NCBI GenBank assembly: GCA_050084515.1
Contig: CM114271.1
Span: 3,844,001-3,908,000 of the forward strand
Length of the DNA stretch: 64,000 nucleotides
Source: Blasia pusilla
Taxonomy: Eukaryota
Direction of reading: 5' to 3'
The notes beneath the pieces are model-generated. The model was not told the DNA's origin and ran no database searches. It saw nothing but the letters and a program-made list of their open reading frames with translations. The translations under genes and the position numbers were made by a program. Position 1 is the first letter of the stretch; each line of letters starts with the position of its first letter. Below, piece by piece: positions 1,380 to 56,259 of the stretch.

Positions 1380-2149
1380 TGTCGTGCGCATACACATCGC
1401 TACACAACATACATCGTTGTCATCAAACATACACATAAACACACACGATCCCATGCTAACTCATGTCATCCATACACATAGGCGAGAAGTACCAAAATAT
1501 CTCCAATAAAGTAAGATCCAATCTCTCTCTACATCATCTCACACTATAGCTCTCAAAGGTGTGCACTCTCTCTCATGTCAAACCAAACGCACTCTCCTAA
1601 TGAGAGGCTTGGGTTACACTCACAAGGCAAGGGACCATAGCTCCGCCGTCTCATGTCAAGAGGTTCAACAAAGAGAGAATGAGCTCTCAAGCTTTCTCTC
1701 CTTGAGGTATACCCCTCCCCTCTCCCAAGCTCTCTCCATGGTAACCTATGCTTCCAAGTCACCTCCTTGGCTCTTGACCTGATGTAGGAGGTCAAGGGCC
1801 ACTTACCAAAAATAGAAAGTCAACAATCCCCAATATGGAAACTTACCCGAAATAGTAAGTTTATCTATATGGCTCCAAATGAGCCGAAACGAAGGGGAAA
1901 CCTGCTCTCTTAGGTTTCTCAGGGCCTCAACAGGTCATTCTCAACCTCCTAGGCGTGTCCTCCACTACTCGTGAAGACGCTCTGCTAGATCCCACCGATT
2001 TATCCTAATAGTCGTGATAGTTGTCGTGCGCATACACATCGCTACACAACATACATCGTTGTCATCGAACACACACACAAACACACACGATCCCATGCTA
2101 ACTCATGGCATCCATACACAGAGGCGAGAAGTACCGAAATATCTCCAAT
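1380..2149 (-). repeat. 3' terminal block of element 1: Y2 (1380-1507), X2 (1508-2019), 2-bp spacer, Y1 (2022-2149)
   Basis: 1380-1507 and 2022-2149 are near-identical 128-bp direct repeats. 1508-2019 matches 10571-11082 (both 512 bp). Confidence 0.92.
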
Positions 2150-2335
2150 CGCCCCCCTAGCTGGTGGTTAGGTCCCTCTAACTCCAGATAGCCATCTATC
2201 CCTACCTACCACGACATACATCTCTAGGACGCTAAGAGCATAAAGGCCGGGTGCTCATGTGGCCCCATCGTTAGTCGCCTTCCTGTCATCCATGTCACAG
2301 AAAAAGTTGGAATCAAAACTTACCTAGTATCTCCT

Positions 2336-3724
2336 CTATGTACATCTGGGACACATCCATCGTCCCCGAGGAACCCTAGTGAGAGGTGGCGTCAGACATG
2401 CCATATGCCAACCTCTCAAACATCCATCACAGACTAGCATCGTGGCCGCACCATGGGTAGAACCACACAACATACAACGCAAGCCTGCAGGAACTACTGC
2501 TAAGCTTGGATCTACTATACCATCAATGTTAGGAAGGTGATATGGCGCACAATTACGCATATGGTCCTTCCATACCATACCATCGCGTTCCTCCAGCAAG
2601 AGAACATCGGATGGCAAAACATCACGCACTCTCAGGATAGTGCGCCATGCAATCACATCCAACGTCGTCGATGCCATCTGTTGGAAGTAGACATAATCTC
2701 CCTGATGAAACCTCCGGATAGTTGGTCGATAACCACCATCCCAAATAGTCGCATACCTCAACGCATCTCGATGCTGCGCAATCGCCAAGTTCTCGAACGC
2801 CATGGGCATCACTCTCCAAAACAACTCAGCCCTCTGAGAACATGCTTGCACCCATACATCTGGGTCATCAAGGTCTAGCACCTCACCAGCATCTCGACGA
2901 ATGGCCGCAGGTAAATCTGGCTCTCGGCCATAAAGTAGCAAGTATGGTGAAAAAGACGCTAAGGATGCATGCCTGCTGAATCTGTATCCCATCGCCAACC
3001 ATGGCAACTAGAGGTCCCAATCTCCTAGGTGATCTCTCTGCAAGCCATACTTGCATAAACCCCTCTTCACCGTCTGCACAACTCTCTTCGCTAATCCATC
3101 CGCCTCGGGATGATCTCGCGAAGTCGTGCGGTGGTTGATCAGCGCCTGATCACACAAGGCTTGGAACTCACCGCAAAACTCGGTACCCTAGTCTGTCAAC
3201 ACCTCAGCCGGTGTGCCATAATGACTTAGAACTCTGTCAAGGAAGGCATAAGCTACTCCCTCACTCGCTTTGTCAGGCAATGCAACCAACTCAATCCACT
3301 TCGAGAAGTGCTCGATCATCACCAACACATAACGACTGTGACGCTCCGTCAAAGGCAAAGGTCCTGCAAAATCCAAACTCCATCTATACCCTAAGCCCAT
3401 GATCGATAATGGATGCAATTATGGAGTCAGAGCATTGAATGATGCTCGGACCCGATCACACACCATGCACCTGGCAACAAACTACTGAACGTCAGTCTGC
3501 ATGCCTCGCCACCAATACTGAATCTGGAGCAAGCTGTAGGTCCGCTTCACCCCAAAGTGACCCAACTCCTCGTGGGCATGCTGCACTAGTCGTGCTCTCT
3601 GCAAAGGATGCAGCACTATGAGTACTTTGCCATCCTCCCAAACCCTCAAAACATGTGTCCCCTCCCAACGAAACCGTCTGGCCCGCTGTAGGAACCGATC
3701 CTCTAGCATCCACGGTGCTCGCAA
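2336..3724 (-). pseudogene. Retroviral-type DDE integrase with C-terminal PHD finger (PHD about 2339-2476)
   Basis: HAHEELGHFG...(C..C) zinc motif, WSLDFAGPLP, EVLTD*G.EF, PYLLLYGREP. The protein ends in CMLCGSTHGAATMLVCDGCLRGWHMACLTPPLTRVPRGRWMCPRC, a C4HC3 PHD. In-frame stops are present. Confidence 0.92.
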
Positions 3725-3899
3725 TGCAGCCAGTACGAAGGTACTCCAAGACTACTCCATCATCATGAATATCTCGGCCAACTCTCGTCTCCTCACTGGC
3801 CCCGGGATCCAAGGACTCTCCACTAGACCTCGCCATCAAAGTCTCCACACTCTGGCTCTCCATAGCCAACATGCCTAAATAGGCTCACGTGTGCCATCC

Positions 3900-5140
3900 T
3901 GGTACCGACTCCTCATCACCCTCTCCATGCCATCGAGCTCCAGTCGCATCTCATGACTCGGGCATGGGTTACGACTTAACCCATCTGCATCTTGGTTGAG
4001 CGTCCCACATATATGTACCACCTGAAAATCATACTCCTGCAACAATAGAGCCCATCTCGCAAGCTTCCCTGTAAGCTTGTCGGACTCCATCAACCACTTC
4101 AGTGGTTGATGATCAGTGATGATGGTAAAGGGGTTGCCGAATAAGTAACACTTGAAATGCGCGACAACCCACACCGGAGCGAAGCACTCACTCTCATAGG
4201 AGCTGTACTTTGCCTCTGTAGCGTTGTTTGAGCGGCTAGCGTAAGCCACCACAAATTCTCTACCCTCATCATCATGCTGGGTGAGCACCGCTCCAAGCCC
4301 CAACATGCTCCAATCTGTGTGCAACTGGAAAGGACGCCCCCTGATCGGTCTCCTCAAGATGGGCGCGGACGTCAACTTGTCCTTGAGCAACTGAAAGGCT
4401 CGCTCTTGCTCATCCCCCCAGTGCCACTCGTGATCCACCTTGGTCAGCAAGGTCAGCGGCTTCGCAATCGAACTAAATCCCGTGACGTATCGCCGATAGA
4501 AATTTGCAAACCCATGAATGCGCGAACACGACTCACATCTGTAGGGCGTGGAATGCGTGAGATAGCCTCTACCTTCATCTGCTGAACACCAAAGCCCCCT
4601 GGGTATATCATATGACCTAAGTACTCAATCTGGTCGTAGAAGAACTTGCACTTGCCTGGATGTAGCTTCAGCCTAGGTAATTGCAATCGTCGAAACACCT
4701 CCTCTAGATGTCGCTCATGCTCCTCAACCGTGGCACTAAAGACTACGATGTCATCAATATAACACCTAGCAAAATCCAGACCAGCCAAGATCCTATCCAT
4801 GACCCTCTGAAACTCAGGCGGGGCATTCGTTAACCCAAGTGGTAAGAACCGCCACTAGTACAAACAATCCTTCCCGTGAGGATCGATGCCCCAAAATGCC
4901 GTCTTCTTCCTGTCCTCCAATCTGATAGGCAGTTGATGGTATCCGGCTCGCAAATCCAATGAACAGAAGATCTTTGCGTGACCAATCGCATCAAAGATCT
5001 CCTCAGGGGTGGGCATGGCATACCTATCGGACTATCTGCCGATTGATAGGTCGGTAATCCCCACACATCTGCCTATCCGTCTAGTTGCCATGCACATCCT
5101 TCTTGGCGGGCATGACAGTGGCAGATGCATACTCCCCATA
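3900..5140 (-). pseudogene. Reverse transcriptase and RNase H (Ty3/Gypsy type), frameshifted
   Basis: RMCGDYR, CYIDDIVVFS, KLHPGKC, IEYLGH, LHTDWSMLGLGAVL, VVAYASR and TDHQPLKWL in ORFs 4453-4800 and 3875-4450 and flanking frames. Confidence 0.93.
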
Positions 5141-5719
5141 AGACATCTCCCCTAGTCTTGCTCCGACCAAGTCATGGCTCCTACTCTGAATCAGAGACCT
5201 CTCCATATCACTGTACCTATAGGGTCGTCGGAAGATCGGCATATCACTCGACAAACTCAATGCGGATCCCCAGTCGCTTCAGCGTACCCAAATCCTCCAT
5301 GCTAAACGCAAAGCAGCTCCTATAACTCCTGAGGAACTGATGTATTCGGTGCCGCTCTCCTCCTGTCAACTTAGGGCCCATATCTGGCTCCCAAGTCTCC
5401 ATCGTGACTACGGTAAGACTCTCCGGCGCGGATATCGGTGGTTGCTATGGTGCAACCCCGTCTCGAACAACAACACTCGATCGCTCTCCTGTAGCCAACT
5501 GCAAACTCCAATCTCCTCCACGTGCAGTGCCTGAAACCACGCTCGATGCTGTGGCTATCATCTCCTTGCGTACCTGCAAAACATCCCAAGAAGTTCAAGG
5601 GTGTTTCTCCCGATCTCCCTTGATGCATAGATCTCCTCGGGTCTTGCCCTGAGCCACTGCCTCCACTGTCTCGGTAGGCATGGGGCTCACCAACGCAACC
5701 ACTGTGATCTATCGCGATC

Positions 5720-6697
5720 TCATACGACACTGCTCAGCCACTCCCAAGCTGAGGATCCATGTCAAGCAGTTCAGGTCCATCGCCTGACCCAAGGCATGAC
5801 GTCGTGATGCCTCTAACACTGAGGGTACTGCCGTCACTCCTGTGGGAAATCCCATCGCTTGCTTTCTCTCGTCGGCGTTGGGCTCCACCAACCGCTGAAC
5901 CTGGTCATCCCAAACCAAGCCACGACCAGCCTCCTTGTATGCATAGAAAGTGGGAAAACTCACAAACGTGGGCAAGGCTGCCCGCGACCTACCTACTCTG
6001 TTGACCACAGTCAACGGTGGTCGATCATCGTGCCTCACTGCATGTGATCGACGACCTGGATCCAGAATGGAATCCACTAACAAATGGGAGGGGCGCTCCA
6101 CTCTCGCATACGCCCTCCATAACACCGCATGGGGCACCAAGTTGGTCCACCATAGACGCGGGCGATGGGCTCTAGAACCTACACTTGCCGCATCCAAGAA
6201 CACTGCTGGGCCGATCCAGGCTCGCTCTTGATGAGCACTCGTCACCACCCGTGACTTGGAGTCTCCTAAGATCGGCACATTCTCCAGAATGTAGGCTGGA
6301 GAACGAGACTGGTGCTCCTGCAACTGCCGTAAGACCCTCAACATCTCCCAATACAACTTGGATCGAGTGTCAGCCAACCCATTGCCTTGTCCAGCACTCG
6401 ATTGGCCCTAACATGGCCAACCGGAAATGACCAAATCAATGGTCCCTACCCGCTCTAAGTCCTGCGCCCCCAACAATGAAATATCCCTCGGTAGGGAACT
6501 CTGGTACCCTTGTACTGTGGACGCACATAATATGTCGGGAAAATGTAGGCATAACTCCACCACATGTCATAGTGAGACGCGCCTCGCAACATCATCACTC
6601 TCCACATACAGGTACTGCTGTACTCGCACTCCTGCCTCAAAACAATAGCTAACCCGGTGCTAATCCCTCCAAAGAGATCTAACACTCGAATACCCTC
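5720..6697 (-). pseudogene. C5 cytosine DNA methyltransferase domain embedded in the pol polyprotein of element 1
   Basis: Motif I IRVLDLFGGISTG, motif II YLYVE.D, motif IV DLVISGWPC*GQSSAG, GLADTRSKLY, motif VI YILENVP, motif VIII RAHRPRLWWTN, motif IX/X MGFP...RRHALGQAMD. One frameshift and two stops. Confidence 0.9.
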
Positions 6698-7099
6698 CTC
6701 CGGGGTACACCACACAATGGATGTGGTATCCAAGGGTGTTATCATAGCACTCCCTGCTACCTCGGGTTCCTCAGACCTGTCACGCTCCGGTGCAAACGCC
6801 TCGCTCCACGCGGTCTGCACGTGCTCATCTGCCAATGGTCGAAGCTCCTCAGTCGAGCCCCACAACGGCATCTCTCCTCCACGGAATGATGTAGCTACCA
6901 TAACACTCCTTTCCATAGAAATGTCAGGAATGGGAGTATCCTCTGCATGGACATGTCCCTCAATCAAATCACTAGGCCAAGTCATGGCACTGTTAAATGG
7001 TGCTAAGGTCGCCATCTCTCCTGGCCGTTGCTCGATCACTGCACCTGTGAATCGAACGGATAATGAGCTAAGGGCCCATCACCTGACTGCCATCCTGGT

Positions 7100-9229
7100 T
7101 TGTAGGATGCTGACTCCTCCCAATAATCTAGGGAAAACCCCATCGGATATAACACTGCTCCACCAACCAAGACGTCGTAGGACTCTGCATCAGTCACTAT
7201 CGCCTTGGCACGCACCACGGACTCATCTGTAGGATGTCCCGGGCGAATCCTCACTACGACCTCATGTCAGGTGATATACTGTGTGGTACTCGCTCCACCC
7301 AAGGATGTCTATATCCGAAATGGACAACGCTCCATATCGGCTCTCGTCAAGCCCAATCCTCTGAATGACGCTTTCTCCAACATCAGGGGTTGCGCTCCTG
7401 AATCCAACAAGACGCGCTGCGGACTAAAAGCTCTACCTACAAGACTCACCAACTGGAAGACCTCTCCTTGGTTATCCACCAACACAACACCAGGAGAAGC
7501 CATGACACGCTCTATCGCGGGTCTAGCGGGCATCTGCGCCATCCTAGCAGCCGCAGCCTGCCATGAATCTGACGTGAACGGTCTGAGCATCCGCTCCAAG
7601 GGCAGGTCCATCACCTCCTCTGCAATCACCTCTGAACATGATGCAGGAACTCCAACTCCGCGCCCACATAGCGAAGCGGCCAGCCGAAAAGCCTTGGTGG
7701 GCGTATCCCCCAACGTCATAACATCGGAAGCAGAAAATAAAGGAGTGCGGTAAACAACGGTGGCCGCTCCCAACAACGTGCTCGACACATGCCCCTCCTG
7801 AGCATCAACAATAGGAGTCGTCGCACTCGCTTCTTCCATCGCCCTCCGTGCCTGCACACCAACAACATCACCAACTCTCAAGGAACTTTGATGAGGACCC
7901 ATCGATGGGGTCCTCATCGCTTCGGACAACATGAAAGAGTGAGGAAGCCTAGTATGTTTTCTGGCTTCCCCTCGCTATGGATCCAACTCTACGGCTCCTC
8001 CACGTGTCACAATTGCGGCGGCCTCCATCTAGGCAACCCCGCACATCCAACCAAGATCCTCTAGATCTTTGGCTGCTCCATATGATGTCGATGCCACGGA
8101 TCCGGCATCGGAAAACCTCAATGCCATAGCGGCAATATGCTTATGTAGCTGCTATATCTGAGCAGCCATCCCAGCCTCACGTCCGGCGTCTCCCTCGGCG
8201 CGTCTAGGTGGTGGTACTCTACCTCCTCCACGGGCAGCTCCACCACCCTGTCGGGCAACTCCAGCTCCTTGTCCCCCAACGGGACCACCTGGTGCATGAT
8301 CTCTAGAACCGGACCGGCTACTCACTCTGGTGCCCTCTCTGGCCCTCGGTCCGGACGTAACTCAAGATGTAAACTCAAACATCTGGCGCGTGTATGACCA
8401 TACCTCTGACAATAGTCACACTGATAACCTCCTGGTGCAACACCATCTCCTCCTCCATACTGAGGCACACGTCCATGACCCTGATGAGTGCAATCGCGTT
8501 GATGATGGGCTCCACCATATGACCAACAAGTAATAGTAAGCGGCTGTTGCTAAGCCGCATATGAAGGTGCAGGTCTCTGTGGCACGGCCTCCCGGTATCC
8601 TCCCTGAGCTCGTGGTGCCACAGTCAACCTATCACGGAATCCACGTTGCTGCACAGGTGGTGCAAACAATCGCAATTGCTCTCGCCCACAACCCATGGTG
8701 GTTACGCTCTCCTTCGCCATGTTGCGCTCAATGTTCTCGGCGGTCCTAAAAACATCTTTCAACGTAGCGGAGGTGTTCATAAGAAGCACCCCCTCCCGCA
8801 CCCGTGTCCGCAGGGTCCGGTCCAGCATCGCGTACCATGACTGGATAGCCTGAGCCTGAGTCACCCCCTGAGTGACCTTGATCAACCTTGATCCTTTTAG
8901 TGCTGGGAGTCGCTCCAACTCCTAAACTCTGCTATGAAATTCTGCAACTTAATCGTGCCTACTGCACCTAAAAACCTACGTGGTCCTCCACCCCGATCGT
9001 CCATCTCGTACGCCCAACTGGTAGGACCACTCACAATGTGTGGCGATGTGCTCAAAAACTCCTCTACACCCTCCCCCTCGTCTGACGATGACACAGAAGG
9101 AGGTCGAGGTGGTCCCTCAGGTGGAGACCCTCGAAACCTCACGCCACTTTGCATAAAACCTCTAGAGCTACTCTTGGGTTCACCACCTCGCCTCTCAAAG
9201 TCCCGAATGGATGCGGTGATGACCCTCAT
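7100..9229 (-). pseudogene. Gag (two CCHC zinc knuckles, about 8380-8535) and aspartic protease of element 1
   Basis: ITCWSYGGAHHQRDC and YQCDYCQRYGHTRQMF knuckles (CWSC and HTRAKC in element 3) and protease RVLLDSGAQ...DVLVG. About 420 bp of gag present in element 3 (about 53180-53600) is missing near 8890. Confidence 0.85.
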
Positions 9230-9834
9230 GCCCCTCTCACTTGATCACTCTCAACCTCGAGAGTAATCCCTCAATCACTCATCCCAAACATGCGGCACTC
9301 GATCTACACTCTCCCTCCTCGAGTCTTGTAACGTGCGGCAACAAGCGGCGTGGTCTCATCGACAACCTACCCTCAACTCCGGACATCCCACACAGGTCTA
9401 TGTCCCCTAAACCACATACATAAATGATGGTCTCAGCATTCACACAACCCAATATCACCAAATCAACAACCCAAATCCCAGAATCCCTCACGCGTGCATG
9501 GTAAAGGACCAGACTGGGTAACCTCAATAAATGTTGAATCGCTCCGCAGCAACTGCAAACCTCGACCCCAACTCGGTCGTGAATCCAAACTCCTCAAACC
9601 AGCAAAACACAATCTGCCCCACAATGACGGTGCAGCTTCGTGATAGAGACGGTGCGGTGCGGCCACGAGTGGCACGGCGCGGCAATCGGCGGCACGTTGC
9701 AGCTACGGGCGTCACGTCACGGTCCTCGTCTTCGTGGAGCGGCTACCAACTCAAAACATAATAATGCGGCTAGAAAACTCTGACCCCATAAATCACTTGG
9801 TCACACGTCGTCCAGAATAGTACTCCAGTCGGTC

Positions 9835-9990
9835 GACGACAGCTTGACGGGTAATGGGCCAGCTGACGGGTTGAAGGGCCTAGCGAAGGGTTGACGTCCT
9901 GGGGACGGGTTAACGACCTGGATGACAGGTTGAAATCCTTGCGATGGGTTGACTTCGTGGATGACGGGTTAATAGCCTGGCCGATGGCTA
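9835..9990. repeat. Degenerate short tandem repeats (GACGGGTTGA-like) in the 5' UTR of element 1
   Basis: About 7 copies of gacgggtt/gacaggtt/gatgggtt. An analogous cgtcaccatcaa array sits at 52410-52505 in element 3. Confidence 0.6.
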
Positions 9991-10570
9991 TGGCGACGGC
10001 GCTGCCAACGGCAGCTGCTGCTTTAGGATTTTGATTTTTACTCTAAAATTGGCAGTTTACAAAATTGGCCATAAAGTTTTGCTCGCAGCTCTAAATTGTG
10101 CACCATCTGTTGCACAACGTGCACAGCTTTAAGATCTAGAATGGCGTTAAAAATTTTTTGAATCGGAAAATCCTATAAAAACTGATGGGGACTGTCGTAA
10201 ACCCCAACGTCTCTTTCTTCTACCCAACATTCGGCAGTGCTTCCGAGTTGATTTCTCCCAACAAAAATGTAAAACTTGTGAAAAGAAAAATTAGAAAGCT
10301 ACATGGTGCTCCCAAGAGCACCATGTAGCTTTCTAATTCATTTGAGTGTGTGGGTAATCCGCCCACACACTCAAATTCTACCAACATTTGGGGAACGCTT
10401 CCGCGCGTCACTCTCCCGTACGAAAAAATGGTAAAGGAAAACAGCAAACTGAATGACTCTTGCTCTCGTGAGCACTCCCATGAGTCATGAAGCAGGGAAC
10501 ATGGTCCCTAACCTGCAAACACAGCGAAACTCTAGCAAGCTCCGCATTGTAGCTCTCATTCTCTCTTTGT

Positions 10571-11082
10571 AAAGTAAGATCGAATCTCTCTCTACACCAT
10601 CTCACACCATAGCTCTCAAAGGTGTGCACTCTCTCTCATGTCAAACCAAACGCACTGTCCTAATGAGAGGCTTGGGTTACACTCACAAGGCAAGGGACCA
10701 TAGCTCCGCCGCCTCATGCCAAGAGGTTCAACAAAGAGAGAATGAGCTCTCAAGCTTTCTCTCCTTGAGGTATACCCCTCCCCTCTCCCAAGCTCTCTCC
10801 ATGGTAACCTATGCTTCCAAGTCACCTCCTTGGCTCTTGACATGATGTAGGAGGTCAAGGGCCACTTACCAAAAATAGAAAGTCAACAATCCCCTATATG
10901 GAAACTTACCCGAAATAGTAAGTTTATCTATATGGCTCCAAATGAGCCGAAACGAAGGGGAAACCTGCTCTCTCAGGTTTCCCAGGGCCTCAATAGGTCA
11001 TTCTAGACCTCTTGGGCATGTCCTACACTACTTGTGAAGACGCTTTGCTAGATCCCACCGATCTATCCTAACAGTCGTGACA
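10571..11082 (-). repeat. 5' terminal repeat X1 of element 1 (not followed by Y)
   Basis: Matches 1508-2019, 55200-55711 and (inverted) 51326-51841. Confidence 0.92.
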
Positions 11083-23672: not shown

Positions 23673-23902
23673 TGCTTTTGAAGCATGTTATCTTTTGTGT
23701 TAACTCATTCCTTACGGTTCTTGTTTTTCCTTGTATTAAGTAGGATCAAGAATGTCGATGCGATACATACAAGGTTGCGTATGGACAAAGTGTGTGTCCG
23801 TGGACTTACGTCCGTCCTATAGAAGGAATTTTTCATATGATCCTTAGGTCCCCCTTCTTTCTCATCCCCTTCAGTTGCCTTTGTGATTGCCACTTTCTCG
23901 TT

Positions 23903-25819
23903 TGTCATGACCATACGGATTATGTCGTAGAGTATGGTGTGCTGGTAGAGGCCATTCCTTATGTAGGACCGTAGTGGCTTGGTAGAGATGCGGTTCCATA
24001 CATAGGGTTGGGGGTTACTCACTTGGGGGTGACTTTCCTAGTAGGGCCCGCTCTTAGGTTGGAGGATATAAGGTGGCTTGCCCTCAAAGAACAGTTAGTT
24101 CTTTGAGTTGAGCCTGTTGCGTTGGGAGTTAGCCTTGGTAGTGAGTAGAGCTCTTGGCTATGGTGTTTCCGCAAGACCCGACCTAGATTCTCCCCATCGT
24201 GGAGTGGGTTTGGCTCGATTGTATGTGATTAAGCGTGTTTTATGACATGGAGGTCTTTCACGGATTTCACTCAAAGAACTCGAGTAGATCGATGGTAGCT
24301 TCGATTGTAGATCAGTATGATGTGGTTAGGGCTGATTGTGTACTCAGCCGTGGATTTTCGTGGCTTGTGGCCTATGTTGGAGGTGTGAATCTGGTGCGCG
24401 GTTGGTAGGGAAAGAAGCGCCTTGCTGAGAGCTTTCCAACGCGCTTTAGATCGCGGATTTTGTCAAGGGAGTTGGAAGTTATCAAGGATTGAAGATTCTG
24501 GTTCGTGTTCGACGGTTTTCGATGTGCTTGGAGAGCTTGGAGTCGGAAGCGTGTGTTGAAGTTCATCCAGATCAGGTGAGAGGTTCCTGTTGCTACTCAT
24601 ATTGTGATCTCCTGTGAATCTATCTGCTCGAGTGTGTGGAGCGTTGCGGATTTCTGCGTGCATGAAACTTGGTGGAAGCGCTGTCGGATTTGCGATTCTG
24701 GAGGTGTATGGACAGCAAGTTTGTTTGATTTTTAGCTCGGAGTACAGAGCTGGGTTGTAGCTGATTTTTTGTGGAGAGATAGCTATGGTGGTCAATTGAA
24801 TTCTGATTGAAACAGATTTGATTTCGGTCACGTATTTGTGAAGTAATTTTTGATCGAAATTTTTCAGACTAGCTCAAGGTCTGTGGCTATGGTGGACAGC
24901 GGATCAGAGGGGCTTGTGTGGATCTACTGGTAACGCAGCCCGTATGTTGGTGTGTGATCGGTATTCTAGGGGTTGGCACATGATGTGTTTGACTCCACGT
25001 TTGGATGTTGTTCCTATTGGAAGGTGGGTTTGTCCTCGATGTACTTAGGAGAGGTAGATGACTTGATCTTTGCATGATATGGATTACGGATGTGCGACTA
25101 ACGATGGGGCAACCTAGCACCCGGCCTAAGTTCTTCCGATTCGGGCACCCAAGAAGGTGTATAGCATGTAGTAGATGTATAGGGCTACAGGAGTTAGAGG
25201 GACCTAACCGCTTGATTAGAAGGGGCGAGTTGTGGTACACTTGCGTTTGTGGATACTCTCGTCTATGTTATGTATGTATGGACAATGCGTATGGTATGTC
25301 GATGTATGTTGTATGCGATGTGAATTCGACGACATTTGTCATGACCATACGGATTATGTCGTAGAGTATGGTGTGTGGTAGTAGAGGCCATTCCTTATGT
25401 AGGACCGTAGTGGCTTGGTAGAGATGCGGTTCCATACATAGGGTTGGGGTTACTCACTTGGGGGTGACTTTCCTAGTAGGGCCCGCTCTTAGGTTGGAGG
25501 ATATAAGGTGGCTTGCCCTCAAAAACGATTAGTTGAGAACACATATCTTTGAGTTGAGCTGTTGCGTTGGGAGTTAGCCTTGGTAGTGAGTAGAGCTCTT
25601 GGCTATGGTGTTTCCCAAGCTTCGACCTAGATTCTCCCATCGTGGAGTGGGTTTGGCTCGATTGTATGTGATTTAAACGTGTTTTATGACAAAGAGGTCT
25701 TTCACTGATTTCAGTTGTGGTACACTTGCGTTTGTGGATACTCTCGTCTATGTTATGTATGTATGTGCGTATGGTATGTCAGCGATGTATGTTGTATGAT
25801 GATGTGGATTCGCACGACA
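23903..25819 (+). mobile_element. Non-autonomous deletion derivative of a second subfamily of the PHD-Gypsy lineage, with split direct repeats
   Basis: X1 23903-24269, Y1 25229-25334, spacer TT, X2 25337-25713, Y2 25714-25819. TGTCA...CGACA termini and flanks CGTT/CATT (4-bp TSD with one transition). Retains PHD-coding sequence. Confidence 0.9.
24914..25048 (+). pseudogene. PHD finger remnant (end of pol)
   Basis: Translates LCGSTGNAARMLVCDRYSRGWHMMCLTPRLDVVPIGRWVCPRCT*, clearly homologous to the C-terminus of element 1. Confidence 0.9.
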
Positions 25820-26037
25820 CATTTCTTCCTCCCTCTTATTTTCAACCGGCCTTCCTTTCATAATTACTAGCAAGTTGCTTGTGCTATCCATAAGAGTACA
25901 CATTATTCCTTGACTTAGCTCTCTTCCATTCTAATTTAACTCCTTAAAATGACATGTGTTATCATGAAAGAAGTCCTTAAAGGATAAATGTGGACCTCAA
26001 AAGGAGGGATTCTACATACCCATCCTCTCTTAATGGT

Positions 26038-30686: not shown

Positions 30687-31894
30687 TTATGCCAGGGCTG
30701 TCAAGGAAGGCTCCAATACCCAGCAGAGCAGCACGTAGCCGAACTCCAAATTTGCAGTGCAGGTGCTTGTGTTGGTGGAAAAATCGCGGACGATGAACTC
30801 CAAACGAGTTCGGCATTTCCCTTGAGTTTGGAACTCCCGGATGAAGCAAATAAGTTCTCCGGCTCCGACACAAGATGAATTTTGCACATCGTCCCCATTA
30901 TGTCTTACCAGCTTGACGGTGAGAGGCTTAGGCATCTTCTTTTGTTCAAGGCGGATTTTCTGGCCCGATTCGTGTAACGTACAAGCCCTTCCTTCTTCTG
31001 TCATCAGCACTAGCTGACTGCGGTGCTCTAAGATCCGGACGTCCCAGCCATAACTCGCCAAGAGCAGTGTCGCCCAAGAATCCTTCTCGACGTCATACTT
31101 GAACAATCGAGGACAGCACCGGTCATCATCATCTGCAACCCAATAAAGTGCCCCTTTCCAAGGAATTCCGGGCTTCCGAGAGAAGCAACTGCTGGGAAGT
31201 CTGGGAGAATTGGCGCCTCTGCTCCAAGAACGTTCTCGAGAGTCATACACAAGTGTGGTGCGCTGAGAAGGGTCGTACGTCTCGGCAATGATCAGCTTGT
31301 AGTTCCCGGTGTCCTTGCAAACCATCAGACCAACTAGCAAATGCTCCATGGGACGATGATAATCCGCAGGACGATTGCAATCATTCGGTGGCAAGGCCAG
31401 ATATGGCTCGTCGCTGTCAGGCATGGCAGATGCAGCACTCTCCAGCGCTTCGTCACCGGATTACACACAACAAATTGCGAACATGTATAAGTCGATAGAC
31501 AGAGCAGTCCTCCACCTGACGCGGCCATCTCCCAGGATCCCATAGAGGGGTCCAACCTCAGAAAAGACAGAGACAGCTGCGACCAAGTGTTCCTCCGCGC
31601 GTCGTACGCCGTGAAATACCGATCGTCCGCAGTACCAGCGGCTGGCGTGAAAAAGGTGAAGTGGAACGGAACGCACTTAGCCGGGCAATCTTCCGCAGGT
31701 GTGAAATTTGGCGACAAGATCAGCTCATTCCATCTCTTGCATACAGTGCGACACTTCACTACACTGGAGAGTGGTAGCTTCGTTAACACCCGTTCCATCA
31801 GATCCTCGGGCAACGACGACCACAAATCCGAATTCAGCACCCGTCTGCTGCCCTCCACCACGCCCCCTCGCCCCCTCGGTCTCAGAAAATACAT
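30687..31894 (-). pseudogene. Plant F-box (kelch/FBA-like) protein gene with one frameshift near 31425
   Basis: F-box LWSSLPEDLMERVLTKLP...CRTVCKRWNELI, then ASGGGLLCL and VVCNPVTKRWRVL. It continues in another frame with YKLIIA, TLVYDSRERSWS, GALYW and YDVEKDSW. ATG at 31894. Confidence 0.85.
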
Positions 31895-33346
31895 AGTGCA
31901 GACAATGAGCGAGATCGAGACAGCGAAGGAGAAAGAGCAAAGAACACGCCACCGTCGAGATCCGGAGAAAGTGAGCAGGACGTCGAGATGCGTAGTAGTA
32001 GTAGTATCCGATGCAAATCCCCCGACGACCACCAGGTAAATTCCTTCGCGTTGATATTGCAGCAATTGGTTCAAATTTCTCCTCACGATTCTAAACCCCT
32101 AGATGAACAAGACCAGATGTGCAGATGAAGGAAGTTAAAACCCGAAACAAAATCTCCCGACGACCACCAGGTAGATTCCTTCGCGGCGAGATCGCAGCAA
32201 TTGACTCAATACTGTCCTCGCGATCGTAGACCCCTAGATAAGTACGAGATACGCGGTTGAAGATGGTGACGACTCTCTCCTACGCCCGCTTACGACACTT
32301 AGCCCCGTTCGCGCAGAAGTAAGCAGAAACGTCCTCTGCCTATCGGTAAGATGATACCTGAAACAGACGCCGCCTGAGTGCGATTACATACTTCTCATTG
32401 GGGCTTCCGAAGCGCGTCAAATTTGACCTTCGAGCTTACATTGACGTTGGCATTTATCTTGCGGGGCATTCCATGGATGCCGCTGTAGAGGTAGGGTTTA
32501 CAAACAAACCTGTCGAAGTTTAGGGTAAACACACGACAACAAGGCTAGGGTCGCCGTTTAGTTTAGGGTTAATGCCCCACGAATAGCACGACATTCGGGA
32601 AGAGTGCTTCCAACTCATTAGGGTTCGACAAATCCATGGACGGTAGGGTTTTCGTTGCTCTCCATGTTAGGGCTCGCGGTGTGGACGAGCCTTTGCACTC
32701 GGAAGATCGCAACTCTAGACTTAGGGTTTAACAGGTATGGGTTCGATCGGAACAAACGGTTCATAGTGGGACATTTGCGGTTCGGAAATCTTCAGAGCTC
32801 TGAGGTTCATCATGATCGCTGTCTGTAAACGAAGACAGCCAGCGGTGCTGCTTCGAGTTAGGGTTGTACACGCTGACACACAACAACGACGTGAGTGCAG
32901 AATCCCACCTCTTCCATCATTTCTTCGATGATTGTCGGTCGAAATGACCATAAGAGCATAGGATGTTGAAACAGGATCCACGCAGACATGGCTGCGAAAG
33001 AAATGTCTCGCCTATTCCGCCTAGGGTTTTAGAACCTGCACCATACGTGGAACGCAAGTACGACCCTTGCGGTTGCGATAGCTCTTAGGTGAGCTTCTGC
33101 CTCAGTACGAGTCCGGCAGAGTGTGCAGGAACTCTCTGCTCACTCTCTAGCAGAAAGCGAACTCCTGTACCACGATCCAACAGTTCTAGATGGAGATGAT
33201 GTTGTGCCCTTCCAACCCTCGAGCATCTCTCACGTGAAAAGCATGAATCGTGTCTCCTGTCACGAAGCTCACGAGAACTAAATGAACCGGCTAACTGCGG
33301 TTAATTCTCGGGGCTGGCGATGATTCTGTTCTGGACGTGATTTAGA

Positions 33347-33575: not shown

Positions 33576-34651
33576 TTTGGGGTGGACGGCGAACGAGATG
33601 TGTTACTACTGTACAGTAGTGGTGTGCAGCTGATGGACGGCGCTGTGAGGTTCCAACTACGGCGGCTCCAAGCACCGCCGTAGGGCTTCACGGCGATTGC
33701 CGTATGAGTCTAGGAGCCGTGGTGATAAACGGGACATGGGGGCAGTGTCGCTGTCCTAAATGGCACGGAGCTCTTGTACGGAGAAGATTCGAAGTGGTGA
33801 TGGTGGTGGGGGGTTGCACTTGAATCCGCTCTAGATCCACTTAGAAGCCGTTGTGATAGGATTACTCGAACTTAGGTCTGCAACTTGCGAGCGTAATGGA
33901 GTGCTATGTCTGATGTTGGTTGGGGCATACGAAGATGCTCCATTATGTATGGGTCTAATCGAGGATGGGGGATAGTGGAGATCCATGGCCTGGTTTTTGG
34001 GGTTTTATTAATTTAATGTCCCCATAGTATATTGAAATAATACTAACACGGGGTGCATGGTGAACGAAAATGGAGTGGATACAAACACTAACACGGCATG
34101 GAATACTAATATGAAAATTTTTAAGAGTGGATAAGTATTAACGCGGAGCAAAATGAGTCCAAATGTCTTTATTTTGGCTCACATCGGACGGTTGAGAAAT
34201 GAAGTCTTCAAATCGACTTAACGCCCAAGTGGCGGCAGAAGAGAATATGGCCTAGAAGTAGGCTATTTTTTTCTTCTCTATCTTCTAGGGATTCCCCTTT
34301 TTATTTGTGCCCAAGGGGTTGGGTGTAGTCTTTGTCGCGGGCATACACGAGTCACATTGTGAGTCACATTCGCACAACAAAAATTATCGATCTTTCCAAC
34401 ATATGGATAGATCATACACATAAATAATATACTCATACGCCAAGAAAAAATTGAAATAAGAAGGATTGATATAACCAACTCCACTCCCAAGTCTAGATAC
34501 ACATATCAAGTCACATCCATCCTCTGTTATGAGGGAATCCATATTGTAGCCCTTAAGCTCCTACCAAATCTTAAACACGTGAGTATTCCCAAGTCTCAAC
34601 ATGAGAATGTGAAAGTCATCTCCACTAACTTTAGTAAGAGTTAGGATAAGA

Positions 34652-36602
34652 GGACCTACATCTTGCTCCAGATACAGTATTGGTGGCAATGTATGCAGAC
34701 TGACGTTCAACTGTTTCTTGCTAGGTGCATGGTTTGTGATCGGGTCCGGGCATCGTTCAATGCTCCGACTCCACAGTTGCATCCACTTTCGATCATGGGT
34801 TTAGGTTATAGATGGAGTTTGTATTTTGCAAGACTTTTACTCGACACGGTGGTGGAGCTTCTCGTGGAGGAGGTAGAGTCCCACCACCTAGACGCGTCAA
34901 GGGAGACGTCGAGCGTGAGGCTGGGATGGTTGCTCAGATACAGCAACTATAGGAGCAGATTGTTGCTATGGCATTGAGGTTACTCGATGCCGGATCCGTG
35001 GCATCGACATCATAAGGAGCAGCCAGAGATATGGAGGATCCTGGTTGGGTGTGCGGGGTTTCCCAGATGGAGGCCGCCGTAGTTGTGACACGTGGAGCGG
35101 CCGCAGAGTTGGATCCACAGCGAGGGGAAGCCAGAAAACATACCAGGCTTCCTCAATCTTTCACGTTGTCTAAGGCGATGAGGACCCCATCGATGGGTCC
35201 TTATGAGAGTTCCTGGAGAGTTGGTGATGTTGTTGGTGTGCAGGCATGGAGGGTGATGGGAGAAGCAAGTGCGACGACTCCTATTGCTGATGCTCAAGAG
35301 GGGCATGTGTCCAGCACCTTGTTGGAGGCGGCCACCGTTGTGTACCGCGCTCCTTTATTTTCTGTTTCTGATGTTATAACTTTGGGAGGTACGTCCGCCT
35401 CGGTTTTTCGGCTGGCCGCTACGATATGTGAGCGTGGAGTTGGAGTTCCTGCATCACATTCAAAGGTGATTGCAGAGGAGGTGATGGACCTGCCCTTGGA
35501 GCTGATGCTTGGGCCGTCCACGTTAGATTCAAGGCAGGCTGCGGGTGCTAGGATGGCGGAGATGCCCGCTAGACCCACGATAGAGTGTGTCATGGCTTCT
35601 CCTGGTGTTGTTTTTTTGGATAACCGGAGAGAGGTCTTCCAGTTGGTGAGTCCATCCGGTAGAGCTTTTAGTCCGCAGCGTATCTTGTTGGATTCAGGAG
35701 CGCAACCCCTGATGTTGGGGAAATTGTCATTTAGAGGAGTGGATTTGACGAGAGCCAATGTAGAGGGTTGTCCATTCCGGATATAGACATCCTTGGGTGG
35801 AGTGAGTACCACATAGTATATCACCCGACAAGAGGTCGTGGTGAGGATTCGCTCGGGACATCCTACAGATGAGTCCGTGGTGCGAGCCCAGGCAATAGTG
35901 ACTGATGTAGAGTCCTACGATGTCTTGGTTGGTGGAGTAGTGTTATACCCAATGGGGTTTTCCTTGGATTACTGGGAGGAGTCAACGTCCTACAGACCAT
36001 GATGGCAGTCAAGTGATGGGCGCCTTAGCTCATTACTCGTTCGATTCATAGGTGCAGTGATCGAGCGACGGCCAGCGGAGATGGCGACCTTAGCGGCATT
36101 TAGTAGTGCCATCACTTGGCCTAGTGATTTGATTGAGGGACATGTCCATGCAGAGGATACTCCCATTCTTAACATTTCTATGGAGAGGAAGTGTCATGGT
36201 AGCCACATCAATCCGTGGAGGAGAGGTGCTGCTTTGGGGCTCGATTGAGGAGCTTCGACGCTTAGCCACTGTAAGCATGTGCAGACTGCGTGGAGCAAGA
36301 CGTTTGCACTAGAGTGTGATAGGTCAGAGGAACCCCAAGTAGTCAGGAGTGCTGCTATGACCCCTTTGGACACCACCCCGATTGTGTGGTGTATCCAAGA
36401 GGAGAGTATTCGGGTGTTGGATCTCTTTGGAGGGATCAGCAGCGGGTTAGCCGCTGTTTTATACGATGGAGTGCAAATGCAATAACACCTGTATGTGGAG
36501 ATTGATGATGTTGCGAGGCGCGCTTCACTTCACCATGTGGTGTAGTTACACATCCGGTTTCCCGACTTATTATCTGCGTCCGCCATTCAGGGTTACCAGA
36601 GC
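34652..36602 (+). mobile_element. Element 2: internal fragment of the DNMT-Gypsy family (integrase piece fused to gag end, protease and MTase N-terminus)
   Basis: 34652-34835 matches the integrase region of element 1 (LLQIQYWW...LGYRWSL). 34848-36602 matches gag end, RILLDSGAQ and IRVLDLFGGISSG. Confidence 0.88.
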
Positions 36603-38135: not shown

Positions 38136-38909
38136 AGGAACGACGTCGTCACTTCTGACAGGGTAGGACGGACGGACGGAGCGGCAGGACTCCTCTTCCG
38201 GCCCAAAGCAGGTGCTAGAAAGAGCGTGGAATATGTCAAAGCAAAGGGCAGACCTCGACTTGGATTTGGAAATCTAGGAAGGCTCTCTGGTGCGGCGAGA
38301 CGGGAGGTGGAAGAGGTGAGACGAAGGAAGGAGTCGTCGTTGGCTTTCCGAGGAAGGGATGGCGGGGGAATGAAGGGTTCGGACGCATGGCGGGATCAGA
38401 AGATGGCTTTGCAGAGGGAGATATAGAGTTCGCGAGGGACTTGGGATACGGAGGGAAGTGGTGAAGAAGTTCAACAGGGTTGAATTGATCGATTGTGTCC
38501 GATAGGACTGTACCTAGCTGTGGCCTTTGTGTTCATGTGCATCTCAAGGAGAGGTTCCCGTGGATTGGAATTCTTCGAAGCTGCGGTTTTGTGTGACTTG
38601 ACAGATTGACCATAAGGATAACCCCATTGATCTCAGGACAAGCGTGACGCTGGTCGACGAGACGGGATATATGCGTAGGGTGTTGATCAATTCTGGCAGG
38701 ATCGGGTAGTTTCGGCGAGAGTAGAGAGATCTGGGCACAGGGCTGTGCAGGGTTGAGGGAGGAGGAGCAGTGGTTGCGCGGGGAGGAAGATACGGGAAGA
38801 AAGCGGTTAAATTTCTGGAAGAGCTCTTTGGACAAACACTCTAGGAAGGGCTTCCCAGTGTATAATTTGATTCGCAGGAATCACTAGGGAAAGGTGGCCA
38901 ACCGCGCAA

Positions 38910-39305
38910 ATGTCCGGAGGACTTATTCCATACCCTACCCAGCACCAGGTACAACTCAACGGTTCACAATGTCAACTCGTCTGCGTTTGGTGCGGAACCT
39001 TGCTTGTGTACCCTTATGGTTCCAATCACGTTCGTTGCGCCATTTGCAGCTTCGTGACAACCGTTCCGCCTCCGGTGGCTCACATCAATTGTGGGGGTTG
39101 TGGAGTAACCCTCATGTACCCAGCAGGAGCACACGCAGTGAAGTGTGCCTCTTGTCAATTCATTACATGTCTAACACCGGTTACTGCAGGGCAATCTCAA
39201 CCTCAAACGCAAACTGTAATTGTTGAGAATCCGATGACTATGGATGACAACGGGCAACTGGTTAGTAGTGTAGCCGTTGGAATTACATCCACCAAACGTA
39301 CGTAA
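38910..39305 (+). CDS. LSD1/LOL-family zinc-finger protein with two zf-LSD1 domains
   Basis: QLVCVWCGTLLVYPYGSNHVRCAICSFVT and HINCGGCGVTLMYPAGAHAVKCASCQFIT, plus the family C-terminal motif QTQTVIVENPMTMDDNGQLVSSVAVGIT. Confidence 0.92.
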   Translation: MSGGLIPYPTQHQVQLNGSQCQLVCVWCGTLLVYPYGSNHVRCAICSFVTTVPPPVAHINCGGCGVTLMYPAGAHAVKCASCQFITCLTPVTAGQSQPQTQTVIVENPMTMDDNGQLVSSVAVGITSTKRT

Positions 39306-44757: not shown

Positions 44758-47012
44758 TTACACATCCACAACAACTTCACTTGGGTCTAAGGCATTTAAA
44801 TTTACGCGAACTTCTGGTGGAATTTCTATCTCAAGAATATATCTCTCGGGATTGGCATACACATACCTAAAGTGTGCTGAATTCTTCCAAAGAACTACAG
44901 ATTCAACCAACAAACCTTCATAATCATCTATTTTCCCCTCCAAGGCAATCCTAAGAACAACATCCAAATGCTTTGTCATTAACCTATTCCTACTTTTAGT
45001 CTTGATCACATTTTGCACAGAGAAAGCTCTCTCACAAATAGCAGTACTAACACACTGTACCCTAGCAATATTCGCTAAAATGAGCAAGTTAGAGAACTTA
45101 CATTGCAAGGACGGGCTCCAACTTACCATAGCCCACAAGTCCTTGAAGTTCCGATCTTTCCACTCCGTCGTGGCCATGAGCTTAAATGATTGAAACTCTT
45201 GTTTCACAGCTCCTACACTCATTAAAGAAGGTTGCAAGTGACCTTTGAAGGGTAAGTCTGTCCCAAAATGTGCAGAGAGGTCATCCAATTCCTTACAACC
45301 CCAACTATTTAGTCCCACTTGCCTTGAAGGCATGTGCAGAGGATTCATTATCCTCATAGCACTAATCAAGTTGTTATCCCTAAACCGATCTCGTAAAGCT
45401 ACACAAACACTCTCAGAAAAATTCTTCTGAAACAACAAGGCAGCCTCTAGATCCTTTCCTGTCCGATTCCTCAACATTTCTATGTTGTGGAACTTTCTGC
45501 CCCTAATCTCAGATTGTAAACGTTTCAAGTAACCCCCTGAAGGACCAAAGTCTGGTAGAATGTGATAACCACTTTCTTCAGAGAAAGTGGAGGCATTCAG
45601 ATCAGGGTTCTCCATTACAAAATTCATTGTTATGGAAGCTATTTCAGAAGTCACTATACTACCTATGGTACTAACATCTACAAACTTATATTGGAACACC
45701 TTACTCAAGTTAGCAAGAAGAAACAAAATATCTGCCAAAAAGTACAGTTGATAGATCATCTGAAATGATCTGAGCTTGTTATACAAATTTGCAGCATAAC
45801 CATCATCTTCCGAAGGCGAGATATCTCTGAAATATGCAAGGATAGATTCCAGTGAGTCACATAAAGTAGTAACAGCCTGCCAACGCGACAACCAGCGAAT
45901 CTTGTGGTACCTCTTCATCACTTTATGAGAATCGTTCAACTTTTCTTGCAAAGTTGCAAGACCACACTTCCTCTTGGACGACCTTCTAAAATATCCAGCT
46001 ACTGCATTCAAAATTGAATCTACTTCTATAGATATTTCCTTACACCCTACACCTTTTGTTGTTAAAAAGCGGCGAGATTAAATCTGTCGCCCACACAATG
46101 CACAGACAACATAAAAGGATTTATCTTATGTTTCAGCTGAGATGCTACTCCGTTTTGGCTTCCTACCATAGTAGAAGCTCCATCAGATCCAAAGGTAACC
46201 AGTTTTGATCCCTCAAGTCCCGAATCCTTTATCAACTCCAACAAATTGTTAGTGATTGCGTTTGAACATTCCTCTGGACATTGGAGCAATCCTATAAAAC
46301 AACTCTCTACTTGCCCCTCATCTAAGTAAGTTGCAAATACAACAAGATGTCCAGTGGTGGATATATCGTGGACTCGTCAATCATTATCCCAAAGAAAGGA
46401 GATTGTTGCACTTTAGAAAGGTTCCTCCTGAGAAGAACCTGGCTAATATAAAAACACATAGCAGCACAACTTTTTTCATCTTGGTACAAGTCGGGATATA
46501 GGTGCATTCACAGATATCAATAACTTACACAGATTTGAGAACTTTGAAAATGGCAGGGCTTCCTTTGCAACGAAATATGCACATTTGAACAGAGTCAAAA
46601 GTGCAATATCACAAGTCCGATTTGTGGTGGCTATAGCCTTGGCCATGGATATGTTCCCCACATTCGTAGCCCATGCAAGCTTCATGTGCTCATTCGACTT
46701 ACCATGATCTGTGAAGGCCGAAACCTTACAGTTAATGGCACCATCCCTGGCAAAGGAGCTTTTCCCCTTACCCTGTCTACAGACTTTGCAAAAAATCCGA
46801 CCAGATTCTACATGGAATTCTATCCAATCGAACAAAGTATACCAAACATCCTTCCAAGCCAATCTATTTTTCTCACTCTGACTTGTCGGATGAGTATTTG
46901 ATTTGTCCCCTTCTCTCCCATCCGATGATCTTGACCTACTGTTCTCCTCTGCAAGGTCTTGACTAACTTCCTTGTGTAGCATCTCATTCATTGTTCGCTG
47001 TCTCTTAGCCAT
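44758..47012 (-). pseudogene. hAT-superfamily transposase (ZNF862/DUF4371-like with hAT C-terminal dimerisation domain), frameshifted
   Basis: N-terminal W...FDWI...IFCKVC...H..S..H zinc finger, FFGIMIDEST, FGSDGASTMVG, SVHCV, IRWLS and VSTAICERAFSVQNVIKTKSRNRL across four ORF pieces. Confidence 0.9.
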
Positions 47013-47579
47013 GTAGAGGCTCAGAGAATGCAGAACAAAGTTCACTAATGTAATCCAAACCCGCGAGCCCTACTGCCCTACCCAAGGCTCCACCTGGGAA
47101 AAACTCTAAGCGAAGCTGTGCAAGCTGCACAACATAAACCTGTCACTTAGTAGGTGCTAATGAAACAATGGAGCTCAAGAAAATGTGGATCTGAAAAGTA
47201 CTCAAGACTCGGCAAAAGATACAATGCCAATGCAATGTGAGCCAGAGCTGTCGATACTCAAGCTGGGGGGAAGATGGGGGATGGCGGGAGGGCAGGGAGG
47301 GGCTTGGAAAGAAGCAGACAGGCAGCAGCGGCGCCGGATCCCTGTCCCTCCCGTTGTAGTTCCCTTCTCTCGAACCCAATCAAAGTCTGCAGTTCAAACA
47401 AGGCACATAGCGAGCAGCAACGAGAGAGCACCAAAAAGCACCTACCTCACAGCGACGCGCAGCAACAAACAAGATAGCATGCGGGTGGAATGGCAAGATA
47501 AAGAAAATTCGAAAGCTCAAGCGAGCTTTGCTTGGATTCAGGAGGTATTGACAGGGATACAGTGGCGGACCTCCGCTCT

Positions 47580-55087: not shown

Positions 55088-55711
55088 TGTCGTGCGCATA
55101 CACATCGCTACACAACATACATCGCTGTCACCGAACACGCATGATCCCATGCTAACTCATGGCATCCAAACAACGAGAAGTACCAAAATATCTCCAATTA
55201 AAGTAAGCTCCAATCTCTCTCTACACCATCTCACACCATAGCTCTCAAAGGTGTGCACTCTCTCTCATGTCAAACCAAACCCACTCTCCTAATGAGAGGC
55301 TCGGGTTACACTCACAAGGCAAGGGACCATAGCTCCGCCGCCTCATGCCAAGAGGTTCAACAAAAGAGAATGAGCTCTCAAGCTCTCTCTCCTTGAGATA
55401 TACCCTTCCCCTCTCCCAAGCTCTCTCCATGGTAACCTATTCTCCCAAGTCACCTCCTTGGCTCTTGACCTGATATAGGAGGTCAAGGGCCACTTACCAA
55501 AAATAGAAAGTCGATCATATACTCAAAATGGTACTTACCTAAAATAGTAAGTTCCTCAATATGGCTCCAAATGAGCCGAAACGAAGGGGAAACCTGCTCT
55601 CTCAGGTTTCCCGGTGCCTCAGCGCGTCATCCGCGACCTACTGAGCATGTCCTCCACTACTCACGCAGGCGCTCTATTAGATCTCACCGATCTATCCTAA
55701 AAGACGTGACA
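55088..55711 (-). mobile_element. Solo X-Y terminal unit of the same family inserted into element 3
   Basis: Homologous to 1380-2019. TGTCGTG...CGTGACA termini with perfect 4-bp TSD TTGG, splitting the protease codons VLL|DSG. Confidence 0.93.
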
Positions 55712-56259
55712 TTGGATTCAGGAGTGCAATCCCTGATGTTGGGGAAAACGTCATTAAGAGGATTGGGCTTGACGAGAGCGGATGTGGAGCATTGTCCATT
55801 CCGGATACAGACATCCTTGGGTGGAGCGAGTACCACATAGTATATCACCCAACATGAGGTCGTGGTGAGGATTCGCCCGGGACATCCTACAGATGAGTCC
55901 GTGGTGCGAGCCAAGGCGATAGTGATTGATGCAGCATTTAGCAGCGCCATCACGTGGCCTTAGTGATCGCCATCACGTGGCCTTAGTGATTTGATTGGGG
56001 GACATGTCCATGCAGGGGACAACCCCGGTCTTGACACCCCTGTGGAGAGGAGTGTTATGGTAGCCGCATCATTCCGTGGAGGAGAGGTGCCGTTGTGGGG
56101 CTCGACTGAGCAGCTTCGACGATTGGCAGATGAGCACGTGCAGACCGCGTGGAGCGAGGCATTTGCACCAGAGCATGATGGGTCTGAGGAACCCGAGGTA
56201 GCAGGGAGTGCTAGGATGACACCCTTGGATACCACACCCATTGTGTGGCGTATCCCGGA

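Follow-up and report, generated by a model that had tools for sequence, protein, structure and literature searches.

The window analysed here, a 64,000-nucleotide stretch of the Blasia pusilla genome, contains retrotransposon copies and host genes. At positions 23903-25819 lies a 1.9-kb element built from two repeated sequences, X and Y, in the order X1, internal part, Y1, TT, X2, GT, Y2. Element 1, a full-length copy of a second subfamily, and a solo X-Y unit of that subfamily lie elsewhere in the window. The features are as follows (window coordinates unless stated otherwise).

1380-11082 (-): element 1, full-length second-subfamily copy; X 513 bp, Y 127 bp, CCTT duplication, 15-nt self-primer match, methyltransferase, PHD
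5439-5447 (-), and L071:6021-6029 in the least interrupted copy of the 1.9-kb element's own subfamily: in-frame TAG with readthrough-like motif
23899-23902 (+): left target-site duplication, CGTT
23903-24269 (+): X1, putative downstream LTR part (rest of U3, then R-U5); first bases TGTCA, the left integration end
24066-24071 (+): TATA-like box by motif match, about 30 nt before the predicted transcription start
24097-24107 (+): predicted start of the RNA, with an 11-nt self-primer whose complement follows X1
24270-24280 (+): putative self-priming primer-binding site abutting X1; differs from tRNA-type (TGG) sites
24281-24913 (+): 5' leader, cut ahead of gag
24913-24914 (+): junction of an internal deletion of about 7.9 kb, unique in the assembly
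24914-25048 (+): PHD-finger remnant, a passive leftover of the integrase tail; first cysteine missing
25218-25230 (+): polypurine tract plus GT, directly before Y1
25231-25334 (+): Y1, putative upstream part of the replicated LTR (U3 start); ends in GACA
25331-25340 (+): internal attachment-like site GACA-nn-TGTC; nn is TT here, family form GACAGCTGTC, a palindrome
25337-25713 (+): X2, by repeat alignment with X1
25714-25715 (+): GT spacer, the candidate joint of right and left cDNA ends
25716-25819 (+): Y2; last bases GACA, the right integration end
25820-25823 (+): right target-site duplication, CATT, one CpG-type transition from CGTT
55088-55711 (-): solo X-Y unit, second subfamily; CCAA duplication; nested in a third partial copy

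The copy that hosts the solo unit is a 5' part of an element of the element-1 subfamily (51326-57506, +), and internal fragments of the same subfamily, without ends, occupy 34648-36601. The window also holds pieces of a hAT-like transposase with a C17orf113-type zinc finger (44758-47069, -), degenerate tandem copies of a unit about 145 bp long (18125-18984) and two tRNA-Met genes 344 bp apart (14364-14435 and 14708-14781). The host genes, for DnaJ, F-box, LSD1 zinc finger and P450 proteins (16114-17193, 31334-32098, 38871-39305 and 61219-62859), are each in a single frame; plant DnaJ genes of this type usually have introns.

The first-pass annotation had proposed the order X-internal-Y-nn-X-Y within a 4-bp duplication CGTT/CATT, and both are borne out by the repeat alignments and coordinates. 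X1 and X2 are 91.9% identical over 384 columns and Y1 and Y2 are 89.3% identical; the GT between X2 and Y2 had been overlooked. The PHD-coding and 3' UTR sequence is homologous to that of element 1, as had been claimed (24914-25209 against 2470-2166, 67%), and the Y end matches at 77%, whereas X, described as distinct, finds no match in the X of element 1 at E<1e-3. X1 and X2 differ by 11 substitutions and 9 indel events over 361 columns; an age estimate from this divergence was set aside as dominated by errors.

The deletion, of about 7.9 kb, starts in the leader and ends just within the PHD finger, eliminating gag, protease, methyltransferase, RT, RNase H and integrase. The annotation was right that PHD-coding sequence is kept, but the remnant lacks the first cysteine and any upstream start. 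Perfect microhomology at the junction is at most 1 nt, and a 30-base pattern across it, allowing up to 3 mismatches, matches once in 390 Mb. We also paired copy ends along one contig, C1, where 47 of 70 left ends could be matched with a right end: 44 of these copies span 8.1-11.9 kb and three are short (1893, 1914 and 5646 bp), the 1893- and 5646-bp copies having breakpoints unlike those of the 1.9-kb copy. When the two halves of the 1.9-kb copy were used as separate queries, they lay 9.0-9.8 kb apart within one element in 8 cases among the best 40 candidates of several thousand for each half.

These data bear on the proposal that the element is a mobile miniature akin to the TRIMs. TRIMs are terminal-repeat retrotransposons in miniature. 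The 1.9-kb copy resembles them in being short and non-coding while retaining priming sites and ends; it has its own target duplication and every predicted cis signal (self-primer, primer site, tract, Y-nn-X and both ends) for a non-autonomous family copied in trans. It differs in being a single copy with no amplified family. Several independent insertions of one short form would mark a TRIM, but this junction occurs once in the genome, the annotation itself having named a unique deletion as evidence against mobility; all 29 other loci compared continue beyond the breakpoint or lack the joined 3' part, and the other short copies are broken elsewhere. We regard a mobile miniature as extremely improbable. 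Misassembly of a full-length copy, very improbable in our estimate, would draw on an assembly that is error-prone within young copies and on the lack of a bridging contig for the junction among the contigs shown for 4 public runs; against it stand the matching target duplication at both ends and the existence of further internally deleted copies with their own breakpoints. About 2,200 joints show the end structure, which misassembly of this copy would in any case leave untouched. The 1.9-kb element is almost certainly a dead, one-off internal deletion of a DNMT3/PHD Gypsy retrotransposon of about 9.8 kb.

The parent, present in about 1,000 copies, encodes gag, protease, a DNMT3-like methyltransferase, RT, RNase H, DDE integrase and a PHD finger. 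This identifies the autonomous partner, sharing X and Y, that the annotation had suggested seeking, and the partner encodes the methyltransferase. In L071, the least interrupted of 26 full-length copies examined, two long frames are split by one in-frame stop: the first carries gag, a protease motif and a C5 methyltransferase, and the second RT, RNase H and DDE integrase. The Pfam order RVT_1, RT_RNaseH, Integrase_H2C2, rve is that of Gypsy elements. The protease of L071 gave no Pfam hit; its motif, LDSGA, was recognised by eye upstream of RT. The integrase terminates in a PHD finger (Pfam PF00628, E 6.8e-10 in copy L066) and no chromodomain follows it. Pfam scans of L071 (its two long frames) and of L066 and L063 (11 frames) detected no tyrosine recombinase.

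The methyltransferase (Pfam PF00145) lies between protease and RT, ahead of the in-frame stop. A search against solved structures placed DNMT3A first (E 7e-15), with DNMT3B, ahead of DRM2 and bacterial enzymes, identifying it as a DNMT3-related C5 enzyme of the non-rearranged type. Its best named relatives are from Marchantia and Calypogeia (67-79%) and Sphagnum (54%), after which come Closterium and numerous unnamed proteins sharing this domain set; a search with RT among long proteins was crowded by multi-copy artefacts and gave no placement for the lineage. In two PHD-containing relatives, P0043 and P0047, read by eye, the methyltransferase sits after RNase H and before integrase; its place is thus variable among members of the lineage.

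In both subfamilies an in-frame TAG, followed by CAG CCA or CAA CCA, divides gag-protease-methyltransferase from RT, a context which we take to fit the readthrough motif UAG-CAR-YYA. The motif is exact in 9 of 28 copies and noisy in the others, and the Marchantia proteins P0001 and P0003 terminate at the matching place. Judged from this arrangement, the methyltransferase would be produced at the level of Gag.

The unusual ends are general. Exact patterns for the subfamily of the 1.9-kb copy recovered 961 X-Y joints, 804 Y-nn-X junctions, 700 spans from X into the primer site and 998 tract-Y junctions in the 390-Mb genome, and the element-1 subfamily has 1284 X-Y joints. That the split ends are heritable, as the annotation had supposed, is seen in their presence in this second subfamily too. 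Among 30 consecutive tract-Y loci, 25 run Y-X-Y, one stops at Y, four are truncated or rearranged and none stops as Y-X; none of 30 consecutive loci running from X into the primer site has Y upstream of X. Two whole terminal LTRs, which would have spoken against the split structure, were found at 0 of 30 5' ends, 0 of 30 3' ends and 0 of 6 genome-wide pattern matches. The parent has TG...CA ends and a target duplication within the 4-6 bp range: 4 bp are duplicated perfectly in 23 of 27 copies with both ends, with one mismatch in 3, and not in one, and lengths of 3, 5 and 6 give no fit. The copy that stops at Y (L247, G000:C1:2483200-2493199) has X-internal-Y without the X-Y tail, within a GGTA duplication, and is either a Y1/Y2 recombinant or an opened one-LTR circle. 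A 1036-bp tandem triplication over the ends of both subfamilies was also observed (L122-L124, G000:C1:7357853-7360302).

The predicted signals for reverse transcription indicate which sequence is replicated as the LTR. The polypurine tract lies directly 5' of Y1 and not of X2. At the other end, an 11-nt stretch after X1 is complementary to X from position 195, 30 nt past the TATA-like box; in element 1 a different 15-nt stretch in the same place pairs with position 337 of an unrelated X. Shuffled sequences reached the 11-nt complement in 9 of 5000 trials and the 15-nt complement in 0 of 5000. The 11-nt self-primer is paired in the minimum-energy fold, but the 5' region as a whole folds no better than shuffles in the subfamily of the 1.9-kb copy (z -1.0), compared with z -3.8 in element 1. 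The complement in both subfamilies would correspond to the self-priming arrangement of Tf1. With the tract ahead of Y and a Tf1-like self-priming site behind X, the replicated LTR is read as Y-X.

Allele sharing within elements was consistent across sites. Y alleles were common to both Y copies of an element in 41/41, 34/35 and 26/27 cases (83 elements; 20, 15 and 9 expected), and Y divergence was 4.0% within elements against 6.0% between them, a difference reached in 0 of 10000 permutations. Alleles in the U3 part of X were common to both X copies in 9/9 and 10/10 cases (28 elements). We conclude that in each cycle the two Ys of an element are made from a single template, as is the U3 part of its two Xs.

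The outer ends of the insertions are themselves informative, since they start with TGTCA and finish with GACA, the two halves of the internal Y-nn-X junction. A hand count of the first 100 of the 804 junctions gave the spacer as GC in 34, GT in 23, AC in 19 and AT in 5 (81 with GC or its transitions), and TT in 4. The spacer being mostly GC or a transition from it, the family form of the site is a palindrome, GACA-GC-TGTC (GACAGCTGTC). Foamy-virus integrase is reported to cleave a palindrome at 2-LTR circle junctions (PMC1180852). The GACA-nn-TGTC site is conserved in the second subfamily, whose predicted cDNA ends read TT and TA, not TG/CA. The TT at 25335-25336, which the annotation had taken for the spacer, is present in the assembly but is not that of the family; with GC as the family spacer and a heavy indel load in the interiors of young copies (8-19 events per kb against 23-38 substitutions per kb), it is probably an assembly error. 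The spacer had also been considered as a record of flanking DNA or of repair, a reading not adopted in view of the preponderance of GC and its transitions and the occurrence of odd values in indel-noisy copies.

The second joint, between X2 and Y2, appears to carry traces of its formation. By hand count, the first 100 of 961 joints read GT in 78, AT in 14, AGT in 4, CT in 3 and CTCAGT in one, GT being the two bases before Y1. Among 54 longer joints, 38 are AGT, 7 consist wholly of primer-site or tract letters, one nearly does and 8 do not; 45 of the 54 are thus tract-end or primer-site letters, and one of the 8 that do not is a chance match. In the second subfamily, the first 100 of 1284 joints (hand count) comprise 68 direct joints and 32 with inserts (A in 24, CA in 3, GA and CAAA in one each, longer primer-site pieces in 2 and a tract piece in one), and all 32 inserts begin or end with primer-site or tract letters. 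We placed the joint classes on a tree of 83 copies built with the junction bases left out, whose bootstrap is not fully settled. The AGT class needs 15 changes for 16 rows against a shuffled mean of 14.9, with starred branches forcing at least 8; the primer-site class is slightly clustered (6 changes for 8 rows, as few in 16 of 500 shuffles). Given the remnants of primer site and tract, and their scatter on the tree, the joint looks remade at each insertion.

Long primer-site remnants end at 11 nt in 4 of 4 cases; the 12 cases in the second subfamily end no later than about 18 nt. Of 15 independent loci whose joints hold such long remnants (a duplicate among the 12 second-subfamily loci having been removed), 12 are without a Y upstream, compared with 12 of 47 loci in comparison samples that were not random draws and from which 3 identical-flank solo copies and 4 truncated or tandem fragments were dropped (Fisher p 0.0004). 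Target duplications at the 12 long-remnant loci without upstream Y are perfect in 4, have one mismatch in 4 and are absent or undecided in 4. Such solos would fit self-joining of plus-strand strong-stop DNA, followed by opening at the one internal site it contains; ordinary X1/X2 recombination also produces solo units, which counts against this argument. The solo X-Y units L105, L204, L210 and L211 lie on different contigs and have identical flanks; the four are one insertion moved along by another repeat.

Our best model for the ends of the family, to which we assign a probability of about 70% from sequence evidence, is an end-joined intermediate opened inside its LTR. Transcription would start inside X, and the first 11 nt of the RNA (15 in the second subfamily) would prime the minus strand as in Tf1. 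The tract before Y would prime the plus strand, yielding an ordinary linear cDNA with Y-nn-X as its LTR. The joints strongly indicate that the two cDNA ends are then joined anew to form the X-Y joint, which might occur through host ligation or an end-to-end jump of RT. The DDE integrase would open GACA-GC-TGTC within the left LTR and insert the product with a 4-bp duplication, giving X-internal-Y-nn-X-Y. Because the promoter core lies in X, the inserted product could be transcribed again.

A plain closed 2-LTR circle has two equal sites, so the mirror product X-Y-nn-X-internal-Y would be expected about half the time. None was found: a genome-wide pattern running from Y-nn-X into the primer site gave 6 matches, comprising 3 chance flanks and 3 rearranged 3' ends, one of the 6 being a single insertion with a TCTC duplication whose joint extends 160 nt into the leader. 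The joint is 104-127 bp away from the left site and 367-513 bp away from the other. Coupling of joining and cutting at the left end would most likely account for the use of this site only, at roughly even odds. A closed circle might instead form first and have its right-hand site methylated by the element's own DNMT3-like enzyme, leaving only the left to be cut. The site does contain CG and CAG/CTG, its central bases show transitions in 47 of 81 cases, an enzyme encoded ahead of the conserved stop should match Gag in abundance, and the layout and a methyltransferase co-occur here and in Klebsormidium; host CHG methylation after insertion, or basecalling error, should however produce such transitions too, and we consider this role of the enzyme quite doubtful.

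The order is also that of the split direct repeats of PAT, TOC, Ngaro and VIPER (A1-coding-B1-A2-B2, as described in parts of PMC4157794). If the family replicated in a PAT- or Ngaro-like manner, the RNA would span X1 to Y2, the X-Y joint would be inherited, and Y1-X2 would serve as a splint restoring the ends before the circle is cut. Variants restricted to the inner copies could then mean separate inheritance: at one site 12 of 28 X2 but 0 of 28 X1 copies carry the variant, and at another 12 of 83 Y1 but no Y2 copies. If real, they would mean that the ends are not templated by Y1-X2. Odd nn spacers likewise cluster on the tree (12 changes against 25.7 when shuffled). At 25378 the family base makes up 92-100% of depth in contigs of three public DNA runs, from which the sequenced individual may differ (shares under 0.2 in other organisms were left out); the public runs listed as holding the sequence included no RNA run. 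In view of this and the indel load, the inner-only variants, and with them the odd spacers, are likely uncorrected long-read error. PAT-like replication would further leave unexplained the primer site fixed at the end of X, the tract at the start of Y, the remnants of both in the joints, the scattered AGT class and the full allele sharing near the start of Y. Those elements use a tyrosine recombinase, of which no domain was found in the frames searched, whereas a DDE integrase, 4-bp duplications, a tract and a primer site are present here. We judge it unlikely. The end-joined model itself does not account for everything, as 8 of the 16 long joints other than AGT are unexplained by remnants.

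The layout is already known from KnitGypsy-Dnmt3 of Klebsormidium nitens (de Mendoza 2018, PMC5890265), which, in the passages concerned, combines DIRS-type A-coding-B-A-B repeats with Gypsy domains and, as here, a DNMT3-related methyltransferase within the element. Judged by these features, rather than by an RT or DNMT phylogeny, the family is of the KnitGypsy-Dnmt3 type. It differs in comprising about 2,200 joints in two subfamilies, in an enzyme whose nearest named relatives are from liverworts and a moss, in the placement of that enzyme after protease and ahead of the in-frame stop and RT, and in its PHD finger, a domain to which the main text of PMC5890265 makes no reference. Passages of that paper contain neither the word 'circular' nor a mechanism, and a search of its text supplements, as far as these were covered, gave no hits for KnitGypsy. 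No Klebsormidium-named protein occurred among 58 hits or in the best 120 of 760 in length-limited searches. Within the literature searched, which stops short of subscription papers and Repbase, PMC5890265 holds the sole description of such a Gypsy element and no mechanism for the layout was found. What is new here is the evidence for how it forms, in two subfamilies.

Tf1/sushi elements and Tcn1 offer the closest parallel for priming. They have no tRNA primer site, and the RNA 5' end is complementary to sequence after the LTR (passages of PMC6317226 and 10.1101/2022.12.06.519325), an arrangement that, together with the RNA start, is predicted here from sequence. They have ordinary LTR pairs and a chromodomain in the descriptions available, whereas the Blasia family has a PHD finger, a methyltransferase and permuted ends. 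Some fission-yeast members of the Tf1/sushi type are described as reading through an in-frame stop; the stop here follows protease and methyltransferase, not Gag. Retroviral 2-LTR junctions (foamy virus, HIV-1) provide a palindromic CA-nn-TG integrase substrate comparable to the internal site (parts of PMC1180852, PMC1905944 and PMC4372172). As portrayed there, however, that site is the end-to-end joint itself and a side path, while here it is internal to the LTR, inserted copies retain the joint, and the route is apparently the rule.

The 1.9-kb miniature itself is ordinary debris; the significance lies in the ends that it shares with its family. Surveys that require two whole terminal LTRs (as in sections of PMC6317226) would miss at least 961 and 1284 joints in this 390-Mb genome, and the model suggests how a layout that de Mendoza 2018 (PMC5890265) mentioned in a single figure legend could arise. 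More broadly, we lean towards a green-plant Gypsy lineage in which the attachment site would have shifted to a palindrome in the LTR and the end-joined intermediate become obligate, possibly with the methyltransferase choosing the cut site. The usual view is that LTR elements integrate by the ends of linear cDNA and that joined circles are mostly dead ends. Thousands of insertions here keep a joint like that of a circle junction, which makes the route testable in a bryophyte-type host; Marchantia has close relatives. If true, the family would exemplify, naturally and at high copy number, the old circle-precursor model of retroviral integration.
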